Of a DNA stretch of 64,000 bases, positions 51,597-58,755 are shown in pieces. The first letter of the stretch is position 1, and the number at the start of each line of letters is the position of its first letter. The stretch lies in the IMG/VR virus record IMGVR_UViG_3300026076_000001; one strand, written 5' to 3'. The DNA comes from a virus. A model generated the notes under the pieces. That model saw only the letters and a list, made by a program, of their open reading frames with translations. It was not told where the DNA came from and ran no database searches. The position numbers and the translations under genes are program-made.

Positions 51597-51652
51597 ATTA
51601 TAGCAACCAATGCAACAAAATTAGATCAGATCAGACACTTTATCAACTGTCA
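51597..51652 (-). promoter_or_regulatory. Early-type promoter: TGACAG-N8-GTGTCT, 30 nt, TATAAT
   Basis: Read directly; dyad lies in the 3' end of 51621..51839; AGGAG SD downstream. Confidence 0.7.
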
Positions 51653-51839
51653 CCTTCTCAGCATCGGTACCGTATACAGTGTTGTAGTATAGTACTATGT
51701 CTTCAATATCCTTATTACCAAATTCTTTATACAAATTATCCAATACCTTCTGATAGTCTATTCCAGGAGTACTCTCTACTAGTTTAGCCATCCTGTTAGC
51801 TACTATCCTTTTGATTAAATCTTTCTTAGTGTGAGTCAT
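51621..51839 (-). CDS. Hypothetical protein
   Basis: 72-aa ORF. Confidence 0.55.
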   Translation of the reverse strand: MTHTKKDLIKRIVANRMAKLVESTPGIDYQKVLDNLYKEFGNKDIEDIVLYYNTVYGTDAEKVTVDKVSDLI

Positions 51840-51912
51840 AGTTAGTTGTTAACTCTACAGCATACCCATTTAATGTAAAAAGATTAAATAGAAGATTTAA
51901 TAGAAATTAGGA

Positions 51913-52098
51913 TTATAGAAATTCTTCAAAAGTCACATTATTGACTTTTTCGAGATCCTCAATTTCTAGTAAATCTTCCCAGTCCCACTGGGTTGGGTCA
52001 TCTTCTAATGTCAGGTCCAGGGTCACGCGGTACCTTGTAGTACTTGGTTGTGACAGTTCAATATGTGGTATACTGATGAAGTTCCTGGGAGCTGACAT
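51913..52098 (-). CDS. Hypothetical protein
   Basis: RYRVTLDLTLEDDPTQWDWEDLLEI; CTAAATA upstream at about 52120. Confidence 0.6.
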   Translation of the reverse strand: MSAPRNFISIPHIELSQPSTTRYRVTLDLTLEDDPTQWDWEDLLEIEDLEKVNNVTFEEFL

Positions 52099-52123: not shown

Positions 52124-52441
52124 TTAGGCGAACGTTTGCCAGTTGCCTACGTACTCAACCTCACCCTGCGGGGTAGGAACGAACCAATCAAATTTGCGTT
52201 GGAATAACCCGTAGCCTAGAACATCTCTAAGGATCTCGTTTAGGATCTGCTTAGTAGTGACGGTCCAGTACCCGCAATTGTTGATCTCTACACGGCAGCG
52301 ACCTGGTGCAATGGTTGCGATGTGGTGCCCGTGGAATCTGACCTCTACTCCTGTGTCTGTATGTGTTACAGATCTGTTGCCTTTGGCGAATGATTTGCCA
52401 TATGCAATTGAAGCGAGCATTTCAGAATCAACTTTTCTCAT
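52124..52441 (-). CDS. Conserved early cyanophage hypothetical protein
   Basis: MRKVD..M, VRFHGHHIATI, GYWTVTTK..LN.IL and FQRKFDWF. Confidence 0.7.
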   Translation of the reverse strand: MRKVDSEMLASIAYGKSFAKGNRSVTHTDTGVEVRFHGHHIATIAPGRCRVEINNCGYWTVTTKQILNEILRDVLGYGLFQRKFDWFVPTPQGEVEYVGNWQTFA

Positions 52442-52967
52442 CGTGTGGGTTCTTGTCTTTGTACTCTTCTATTATAGCGTCGCTCATCTGAATATCAAAC
52501 GCATTTGTGCCACTTTGTAGATTGGTTGCATCTGGGACCTCGAAGTTCAGCCCAGCCTCACCAACGACCACGGCATCCTCTGGCATTGTGCTACCTGTGA
52601 AAGCGTCCCAACCCCGCTTGAGCATATCTGGATTCTGTTCTAGTCTAGAATCTAGTTTTAGATTGCCTGATTGTATTCTTTCAGTAATGAAACGTCCAAT
52701 CGATGCATCTTCCCTCTCGATTGTGTCATTTATATCCTCTACTAGTTGATCTTCGTCGTCTCTATCTTGTTCAGCTTCCAATTTACCACTTAATTCCATA
52801 AATGAAGACTGAAACTCATCTAAATCATTATTTTTGTAACAATATTGTACATTAATGTTAGATTTAAACGTTACTTTAACAAAATTATTATCAAAATCAA
52901 GCTCCAAATACTCAATTGCACTGCTTGGTACCTCTCGATACCCTATTTTTCCTAGAATCTCAGCCAT
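52428..52967 (-). CDS. KTSC-like domain protein with acidic extension
   Basis: VPSSAIEYLELD...VKVTFKSN...YCY and SIGRFI....SGNL; KTSC-like pattern recognised by eye. Confidence 0.55.
   Translation of the reverse strand: MAEILGKIGYREVPSSAIEYLELDFDNNFVKVTFKSNINVQYCYKNNDLDEFQSSFMELSGKLEAEQDRDDEDQLVEDINDTIEREDASIGRFITERIQSGNLKLDSRLEQNPDMLKRGWDAFTGSTMPEDAVVVGEAGLNFEVPDATNLQSGTNAFDIQMSDAIIEEYKDKNPHDEKS
52471..52527 (-). promoter_or_regulatory. Early-type promoter: AACCAA-N8-GTGGCA, 31 nt containing TTGATA-N16, TATAAT
   Basis: Read directly; lies entirely inside the coding sequence of 52428..52967. Confidence 0.7.
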
Positions 52968-52996
52968 TTTGACGTTTTTGATTAAATCTTAAACTT

Positions 52997-53025
52997 ATAA
53001 TAACTCATTTATCTAAAAAAGTCAA
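52997..53025 (-). promoter_or_regulatory. Host-like sigma70 promoter TTGACT-N17-TATTAT
   Basis: Plus strand ataata at 52997-53002 and agtcaa at 53020-53025. Confidence 0.6.
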
Positions 53026-53196
53026 GTTTTTAACTTATTAAACTTTCGAGATTTCCGAATATTTCAGTTTTTTAAGTTTCTGAGGTTTTTGGTTGACAAA
53101 TGCTAGACTGCGGGCTAAGACCCCCAAATCCCTCAACATTAACCGAGAGATAGAACACCTAGGTATGGTTTATTTAACATTTATAAATGAACATAC

Positions 53197-53240
53197 TTTT
53201 CCACAGGTTTTCCACAAGTTATCCACAGGGTTGTGGAAAA
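53197..53240. promoter_or_regulatory. Cluster of four DnaA-box 9-mers
   Basis: TTTTCCACA at 53197 and 53208, TTATCCACA at 53219, and inverted TGTGGAAAA at 53232. Confidence 0.75.
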
Positions 53241-53252
53241 CTATCTGTCATA

Positions 53253-53450
53253 CTAAGGGGAGCTACGTGCGGAGCGTGTGGTAAGATTCTTCTTATCCTC
53301 TAGTAAACTGAGTTGTCTATCCACTTCTACCTTCAATGACATTAGATGTCCACCAAGGTACTGTTCCCACTCATTACCCTCGAACAAATCACCCAAATGT
53401 AGTAGATGTTCTTGTGCAAAGTACAATTTAGTTTGTTCATTCATTGCCAT
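53253..53450 (-). CDS. Hypothetical protein
   Basis: 65 aa; KLYFAQEHLLHLGDL..GNEWEQYL..HL.SLKVEVDRQL. Confidence 0.6.
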   Translation of the reverse strand: MAMNEQTKLYFAQEHLLHLGDLFEGNEWEQYLGGHLMSLKVEVDRQLSLLEDKKNLTTRSARSSP

Positions 53451-56171: not shown

Positions 56172-56172
56172 A

Positions 56173-56246
56173 CGGGATTGACGAGGATCGAACTCGCAAC
56201 TTCCTCCGTGACAGGGAGGTGCTCTAACCAGTTGAACTACAACCCC
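56173..56246 (-). tRNA. trnD: tRNA-Asp (GTC), CCA not encoded
   Basis: Cloverleaf: acceptor GGGGTTG/CAATCCC, D arm GTTC/GAGC, anticodon arm CCTCC-CTGTCAC-GGAGG, T arm GCGAG-TTCGATC-CTCGT, discriminator G; 74 nt. Confidence 0.95.
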
Positions 56247-56249
56247 AAT

Positions 56250-58366: not shown

Positions 58367-58755
58367 TCAACTTCCTCGAAGTAAATTCCGTGGTATGCAT
58401 TGAATGCATCTAGTGAGAGATAGTCATCGTTGTGTATCTTGATACCACTCTCATCGCCAAGACACATAAACTCTTCAGCGAAATAGAAAGCATTGGTATC
58501 GTGACGCTCACAACAGTCTAAATACTCCTCGACTTGCTCATCACTCATCCCACACGTATCTATGCAGAATGAGAGATCGTCTAACAGTGAATTTAATGTG
58601 GATTCCATTTGTAGAGGGTGTAGATTAGGACAATTGTGCAAATTAAAATGCACGAAAAAGAGACAATAATAATGTTCATCTGATGTATAGGTATCCTCCT
58701 GCCCAGTCTGCTCTGTTGTAGCACTCCATACGTGACTTGATGATGCGTAGATCAT
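58363..58755 (-). CDS. Acidic hypothetical protein (true start probably MESTLNS at about 58611)
   Basis: DDLSFCIDTCGMSDEQ, FYFAEEF; the 5' part overlaps the next gene. Confidence 0.55.
   Translation of the reverse strand: MIYASSSHVWSATTEQTGQEDTYTSDEHYYCLFFVHFNLHNCPNLHPLQMESTLNSLLDDLSFCIDTCGMSDEQVEEYLDCCERHDTNAFYFAEEFMCLGDESGIKIHNDDYLSLDAFNAYHGIYFEEVE

Follow-up and report, generated by a model that had tools for sequence, protein, structure and literature searches.

A cluster of perfect recognition sites for the host initiator DnaA in a T4-like cyanophage raises the question of what such a phage could do with them. The general view is that T4-like phages replicate independently of the host initiator, and we know of no case in which a lytic phage of this type, equipped with a helicase loader and primase of its own, makes use of DnaA. 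To our knowledge, nobody has yet mapped a replication origin in a cyanomyovirus, and a literature search, thin in subscription journals, found no paper on DnaA boxes in these viruses. The stretch analysed here (the window) comprises 64,000 nucleotides of the IMG/VR virus record IMGVR_UViG_3300026076_000001. The virus is a T4-like cyanomyovirus, with giant structural ORFs and a dam gene that shares 75% identity with its P-HM2 counterpart; it also encodes 2OG-Fe(II) oxygenases, and a Kyano_Gp96 gene lies just downstream of the array site. A tRNA-Asp (GTC) gene on the minus strand (56172-56247) directly adjoins the end of a 2OG-Fe(II) oxygenase gene, in a stretch with 95% identity to Synechococcus phage S-B68.

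Four DnaA boxes in a gene-free gap

Boxes 1 (53197-53205) and 2 (53208-53216), both reading TTTTCCACA, and box 3 (53219-53227), reading TTATCCACA, lie on the plus strand, separated by 2-bp gaps that give an 11-bp phase. Box 4 (53232-53240), again TTTTCCACA, is inverted on the minus strand and converges with box 3 across a 4-bp gap. All four were found in the positions, orientation and 11-bp phase given by the initial annotation. They are the only matches to TTWTCCACA in the 64-kb window, across which 1.63 are expected; a Poisson estimate from the window-wide rate puts the chance of four within 44 bp at about 1e-8.

The array occupies a gene-free gap of 285 bp (52968-53252) between two minus-strand ORFs, 52428-52967 and 53253-53450. 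A crude gene call ranks this gap second in the window; the larger interval, 58367-58675, reads like coding sequence, which leaves 52968-53252 as the largest true gene-free gap. The very AT-rich flanks described earlier were borne out, as 53171-53195 falls within the top 0.05% of least stable 25-bp windows and 52975-53075 ranks among the two least stable 100-bp stretches in the 64 kb. The DNA on the 3' side of the boxes is coding, with about 50% GC. Another short and very AT-rich gap, 51840-51930, separates two further minus-strand ORFs, 51621-51839 and 51913-52098. No DnaA boxes occur in it, and at window sizes of 40 and 60 bp it contains the least stable DNA of the whole 64 kb.

Conservation among cyanomyoviruses

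Among 15 distinct relatives, all uncultured phage contigs, 33 of the 36 box positions are invariant, as against none of the 8 spacer positions. Boxes 1 and 4 are invariant at all nine positions, box 3 at eight and box 2 at seven. Two of the three variable positions, one in box 3 and one in box 2, are the permissive third base, at which the accepted forms of the box differ (A or T); at the remaining one, position 8 of box 2, a single relative (L124) has T in place of C. Judged from this alignment, the pattern is a textbook binding-site footprint. When IMG/VR was scanned with a motif from the neighbouring AT block instead of the boxes, 24 contigs were returned; apart from two chance matches, every one that was read has the box array.

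Several genera of cultured Synechococcus myoviruses, represented by S-PM2, S-RIM44, Sf-FR1 and S-BM3, have homologous modules that carry arrays, and BLAST places arrays also in Syn1, S-RIM32, S-H38, S-CAM1, S-CAM3, ACG-2014d and others, about 81 records in total. S-PM2 has nine boxes in its whole genome and S-RIM44 has eight, and in each the sole cluster is one of three boxes at the homologous site. Syn9 has just a loose box pair, inside an annotated ORF. On this comparison, the array is under strong purifying selection and present in many ocean Synechococcus myoviruses. The Prochlorococcus myoviruses P-RSM6, P-HM2, P-SSM2, P-SSM4 and MED4-213 contain no array, and their scattered boxes occur at chance level. 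P-RSM6 keeps the motif ATAGAACAC and the AT block (2535-2580 of stretch L143) with decayed box remnants alone, such as TTTCCCCAT, as would be expected if a lineage infecting Prochlorococcus had lost the array. Two checks proposed in the initial annotation, a count of the 9-mer and a survey of conservation across cyanophages, gave these outcomes: matches cluster at this one site in the window, S-PM2 and S-RIM44, and arrays occur in several Synechococcus myovirus genera, with five Prochlorococcus myoviruses lacking them.

Tandem DnaA boxes are not confined to cyanophages. They were seen in the T7-like phages phiEap-1, Kp7 and Shigella A7, within about 180 bp of the genome end, and in P483, Lactococcus AM1-type, Arthrobacter and Streptomyces phages, Clostridium phiCD119 and several microviruses; as a perfect triple in 11-bp phase, such boxes occur on more than 118 IMG/VR contigs. 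The exact triple pattern is present in 88 bacterial genomes spread across many phyla, and the perfect triple array in 5 of 251 sampled cyanobacterial genomes, none of the five small. A direct copy of a host origin was rejected, as no picocyanobacterial-size genome among the 251 carries the perfect triple.

The surrounding module and the likely ligand

Read rightwards on the plus strand, the conserved module consists of a leftward early promoter, an AT-rich repeat zone, a promoter-like cassette, the ATAGAACAC motif, the AT block, the boxes and a border motif. The leftward promoter (52997-53025, minus strand) is of sigma-70 type, TTGACT and TATTAT separated by 17 nt, with 10 of 12 consensus matches in a promoter scan, and serves the downstream flanking ORF (52428-52967, minus strand; 179 aa, phrog_4357). 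Homologues of this ORF on IMG/VR contigs (66-93% identity) retain the array upstream. The AT-rich, T-tract repeat zone (52975-53092) is a partial palindrome with inverted and direct repeats, lying between two divergent promoter-like elements. Its repeats are longer in S-PM2, S-RIM44 and Sf-FR1 than in the window. Repeat-built zones upstream of the cassette occur at L141 2193-2352 (S-PM2), L142 2240-2325 and L145 1108-1405 (S-BM3); that of S-PM2 is made of 17-bp units and an imperfect palindrome of 44-55 nt, and that of S-BM3 of an unrelated set, comprising five copies of TCTAGACTAGA and a perfect inverted repeat of 21 nt. The word TAGAC recurs within the cassette, and the short repeats could be candidate iteron-like sites for some protein.

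The cassette itself, TTGACA-N17-TAAGAC (53093-53121, plus strand), points to the boxes, is unique in the window and is conserved in S-PM2, S-RIM44, Sf-FR1 and many IMG/VR contigs. Its first hexamer, TTGAC(A/T), is conserved among relatives. The second is TAAGAC, or TTAGAC or TTAGAT in two relatives, and sometimes lacks the A at position 2. The promoter scan does not list the cassette, since position 6 of its second hexamer is not T. In S-BM3, the cassette is a canonical TTGACA-17-TAGACT upstream of plus-strand genes whose leader contains the boxes, an arrangement that shows how such an array can be placed as an operator in a leader. S-BM3 is also the exception in element order, its boxes standing before the AT block and not after it.

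Between cassette and AT block lies the conserved ATAGAACAC (53150-53158, plus strand), the motif that box-less P-RSM6 retains. The AT block (53164-53196, plus strand) starts 43 bp past the cassette and reaches as far as box 1, at a distance of 75 bp; it comprises a TAnnnT hexamer (TATGGT), the conserved TTTATTTAACATTTA and a variable spacer of ~13 nt adjoining box 1, and in all relatives read the hexamer stands 20 nt before the end of CATTTA. On the right, the border motif GGAGCT...GCGGAG (53257-53274) overlaps the 3' end of the upstream flanking ORF (53253-53450, minus strand; 65 aa, zero family matches), which is the last gene of a leftward operon running into the array. An intrinsic-terminator scan found no terminator-like site between this operon and the array. 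The border motif is retained even though the upstream ORFs are unrelated, the window ORF giving no BLASTP alignment with S-PM2 p059. In nearly all relatives it takes the form GGGAG, 6-7 nt, (T/A)(G/A)CGGAG (also at L141 2617-2640 and L142 2575-2597), covering the stop and last codons of ORFs that lack mutual protein similarity. On the plus strand, it has the look of a ribosome-binding site with a start codon (GTG or TTG) and then CGG behind it, but the frame in the window has just 5 codons. At the homologous site of S-PM2, RefSeq annotates tRNA-Leu and tRNA-Asn over the module (L141 2478-2634; NC_006820.1 19177-19333), and other RefSeq tRNAs of this genome fall inside CDSs. ARAGORN found no tRNA in the 5-kb S-PM2 stretch; a tRNA at this site was rejected, and the RefSeq tRNA coordinates appear to be stale.

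The position of the boxes relative to the cassette is strikingly regular. IMG/VR was scanned with the cassette motif alone, which gave 96 distinct instances; of the box-free ones, many are probably chance matches to the 14-base pattern. Near these instances, 143 exact boxes lie within 160 bp downstream and 12 within 160 bp upstream, with a single match for the reversed control. Of the 52 instances in which at least two boxes accompany the cassette, 51 agree in the polarity of the first box with respect to it. Position and polarity so fixed behind the cassette argue that the box array is cis-acting and not a free sink. A helical-phase ladder from cassette to first box, seen with 9 architectures, dissolved with 52 and was rejected.

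The same figures bear on one of the two functions put forward in the initial annotation, a datA-like sink. Sinks of the datA type gather many DnaA molecules on clustered high-affinity boxes, and feature a bending-protein site and stimulated ATP hydrolysis. On this reading, the array would act in trans on the host DnaA pool, by titration or by a change of nucleotide state, and so disturb host replication. Its density exceeds that in likely hosts, given the rarity of the perfect triple in the cyanobacterial sample, its boxes would be multiplied along with the phage genome copies, and its geometry mirrors the E. coli DARS1 core. However, four perfect boxes, dense as they are beside the sampled cyanobacterial genomes, are few in number (3-4 boxes make up an array), and their capacity as a sink would depend on phage copy number. 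A trans role would also leave the fixed position and polarity behind one cassette unexplained, since a trans-acting sink is expected to be free in both. In addition, the inverted box is missing in a quarter of arrays, and reactivating DnaA has no evident benefit for a lytic phage. Trans action on the DnaA pool fits poorly and is unlikely.

The spacing of the boxes follows a strict grammar. Boxes of the same orientation in cassette-linked arrays are spaced by 2 or 3 bp, except for a few gaps of 12-13 bp, which contain a decayed box, and rare longer ones. Inverted boxes always come after direct ones, so that phage arrays are either inward-facing (convergent) or all direct, the inverted box being absent from about a quarter. 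Where convergent boxes seem to lie 14 bp apart, the inverted one mostly has a decayed direct box 4-5 bp away. E. coli DnaA needs box pairs 2 or 3 bp apart and fails at 4 (Stringer et al., PMC11317965). In vitro, cyanobacterial DnaA binds TTTTCCACA, the cyanobacterial form of the box, and binds pairs better than single boxes (PMC4674748). DnaA is by far the likeliest ligand, because the gap grammar matches its requirements and the cyanobacterial protein binds TTTTCCACA. The phage very probably docks host DnaA at the array; this part of the initial annotation, its use of host DnaA, gains strong support from the exact footprint, the 2- and 3-bp gaps and the conservation across cyanomyovirus genera.

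Could the 9-mers instead be bound by a phage protein, or belong to a structural RNA or DNA element? Boxes 4 and 2 form an 11-bp perfect inverted repeat, and as single-stranded DNA this repeat folds into a stable hairpin of -11.2 kcal/mol (z = -3.8). The hairpin is, however, absent where the array has no inverted box, and the sites match the host consensus, vary almost wholly at the permissive position and keep the DnaA-specific gaps of 2-3 bp. A structured RNA was rejected, with no Rfam match at permissive or gathering thresholds; single-sequence folds are mildly better than those of shuffles (z = -2.9 and -1.4), a signal that comes from the inverted boxes and is absent in many relatives. A small protein was likewise rejected, the 39-codon plus-strand frame that runs across the boxes being interrupted in relatives. 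Binding by something other than DnaA is very improbable.

Possible functions and known systems

If DnaA docks at the array, one outcome would be that of a bacterial chromosome origin, where bound DnaA itself melts the adjacent AT block. This was the other function suggested initially. The phage module was compared with E. coli oriC and two cyanobacterial origins (genomes G003 and G004). In all three, the box arrays are outward-facing, with divergent halves. The unwinding element is consistently found 3' of the boxes when they are read as TTATCCACA, as it is for the R1 box of E. coli. In the cyanobacterial origins, a box is followed by GGCT and (CTA)4, and then by the most AT-rich 25-mers of the region; the clean unwinding modules at L458 266-322 and L459 520-580 are useful cyanobacterial reference examples. 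The (CTA)4 repeats are DnaA-trios of the basal unwinding system (PMC8287927). A trio run was defined as three or more DnaA-trios (3'-GAT-5') no further than about 16 bp from a box, on its 3' side. By this measure, 53 distinct phage arrays were checked and not one has a run behind it; past box 4 of the window, the triplets are interrupted and begin 13-19 bp from box 3.

The phage array resembles the cyanobacterial oriC in its box sequence, with four perfect TTWTCCACA of the host consensus, and in its tandem spacing of 2 bp (3 bp in relatives), and the flank CCACA-GGCA-CTA of one phage subfamily resembles the host's CCACA-GGCT-CTA. An AT-rich block also lies alongside. However, the module differs from an oriC in being inward-facing, without trios, with its AT block on the opposite (5') side and with no dnaN or dnaA neighbour. 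To judge by this layout, it uses the words of the host boxes but not the arrangement of the host origin, and it does not belong to the oriC family. GC skew, a marker proposed for locating an origin, has no inflection at the array, and is uninformative for a phage that replicates by recombination. Canonical melting of the AT block by DnaA is unlikely, and an oriC-like origin fits the locus poorly enough to be quite improbable. Transcription blocking and priming are likelier than oriC-style melting as first subjects for tests, because the array is inward-facing, DARS1- and asnC-like and devoid of trios. Its function is most likely a gating of transcription or of replication start, without the unwinding design of the host origin.

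The explanation tentatively preferred is that the array is a cis-acting DnaA roadblock or insulator that gates the cassette transcript by the availability of host DnaA. DnaA would bind the four boxes cooperatively, the 2-bp gaps suiting DnaA dimers, and the resulting complex, compact and inward-facing, would sit where the module meets the leftward early operon next to it. RNA polymerase arriving from the cassette would be confronted by boxes 1-3, and any that reads past the end of the upstream operon by box 4. DnaA occupancy would set the reach of the cassette transcript and shield the AT-rich module, and an early phage decision would thereby be tied to the amount or state of host DnaA. From the observed sites, their conservation, their grammar and their fixed context, we infer DnaA binding, an active cassette promoter and a roadblock effect.

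DnaA roadblocks probably depend on orientation. The polarity expected of them, with TTATCCACA on the non-template strand, is found in boxes 1-3 for a transcript from the cassette and in box 4 for one from the upstream operon. The roadblock is further favoured by the single cluster per genome in S-PM2 and S-RIM44, by the S-BM3 boxes in a leader behind a canonical promoter, and by the upstream operon, which has no intrinsic terminator before the module. Its weak point is the second hexamer of the cassette, which lacks the key T at position 6 and makes the cassette a putative promoter. Also counting against it, a quarter of arrays lack the inverted box, so that two-way blocking would not be universal, and the S-BM3 boxes precede the AT block. 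A dedicated U-rich release tract before box 1 was considered and rejected, the bias of T over A being weak (0.41 versus 0.35).

A possible but doubtful extension of the roadblock, which does not exclude it, is a replication start of the T4 oriF/oriG kind. The cassette transcript would enter the AT block and be halted by DnaA, and the resulting RNA-DNA hybrid would prime phage DNA synthesis. The T4 origins oriF (uvsY) and oriG (gene 34) consist of a promoter and a downstream unwinding element, and use an RNA primer. Correspondingly, the promoter-like cassette is followed, 43-75 bp on, by an easily unwound element, the AT block, with one of the least stable 25-mers of the window (top 0.05%). A repeat-rich AT zone lies alongside, there is a single module per genome, the module occupies the largest true gene-free gap, and initiator boxes beside AT-rich DNA are an origin hallmark. 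On the other hand, the cassette promoter is putative, the skew shows no inflection (a marker of no use here), a U-rich hybrid would be weak, and the Prochlorococcus relatives manage without boxes.

There is thus some chance, though a rather low one, that in Synechococcus T4-like cyanophages the start of replication is gated by DnaA, with a transcript stopped at the AT block priming DNA synthesis. Phage replication would in that case be coupled to the abundance or nucleotide state of the initiator, hence to light and the host cell cycle, and Prochlorococcus phages would have lost the coupling. The state of cyanobacterial DnaA tracks light and growth, and a conserved array would mean that abundant viruses read or use it. 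S-PM2, S-RIM44 and S-BM3 are cultured, so that the DnaA hypothesis is directly testable. The presence of arrays in Synechococcus phages and their absence from Prochlorococcus phages provide a second lead. New here are the side-by-side reading of the module and the host unwinding system, the rule that arrays face inward, with its DARS1 and asnC parallels, the polarity statistic and the contrast between Synechococcus and Prochlorococcus phages.

Among known systems, the roadblock preferred above has its closest model in asnC-mioC of E. coli, where, for the asnC transcript, it is the non-template strand of the box that reads TTTTCCACA. DnaA roadblocks to transcription at this locus are credited to Gielow (1988) and Schaefer and Messer (1988), as cited in PMC11317965. 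The likeness lies in a box placed in the path of a transcript with the same polarity as boxes 1-3 and box 4. However, asnC-mioC is a single chromosomal site and the phage array one of 3+1 boxes, for which both transcript and block are predicted. The parallel with DARS1 is one of geometry. DARS1 has three DnaA boxes, of which I and II are head-to-head, so that DnaA molecules meet head-to-head (PMC6868365). A DARS core also stimulates release of ADP from ADP-DnaA. Its core in MG1655 reads plus box, 5 bp, minus box, 3 bp, minus box; the window reads box, 2, box, 2, box, 4, inverted box. Boxes 4, 3 and 2 are a mirror image of the DARS1 core in having a convergent pair with a tandem neighbour, but the convergent gap is 4 bp and not 5, there is one extra box, and some relatives have no inverted box. 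The gaps in S-PM2 are 3 and 4 bp, and the convergent gap is 4 bp also in S-BM3; contig L397 (taken as S-RIM32), with gaps of 3 and 5 bp, has the exact DARS1 geometry.

The T4 origins oriF and oriG share with the phage module a T4-like genome and a promoter-like element, with an easily melted block following at a distance of some tens of bp. They depend on MotA-driven middle promoters and contain no host initiator boxes, whereas the cassette has a sigma-70-type first hexamer and an atypical second, and DnaA boxes follow its AT block. Host DnaA boxes on phage and plasmid replicons are known from P1 oriR, the lambda pR/ori region, F, RK2 and pSC101. Like the module described here, these are mobile replicons with host initiator sites beside AT-rich, repeat-rich DNA; unlike it, they have an initiator of their own, Rep or O, and belong to temperate phages or plasmids.
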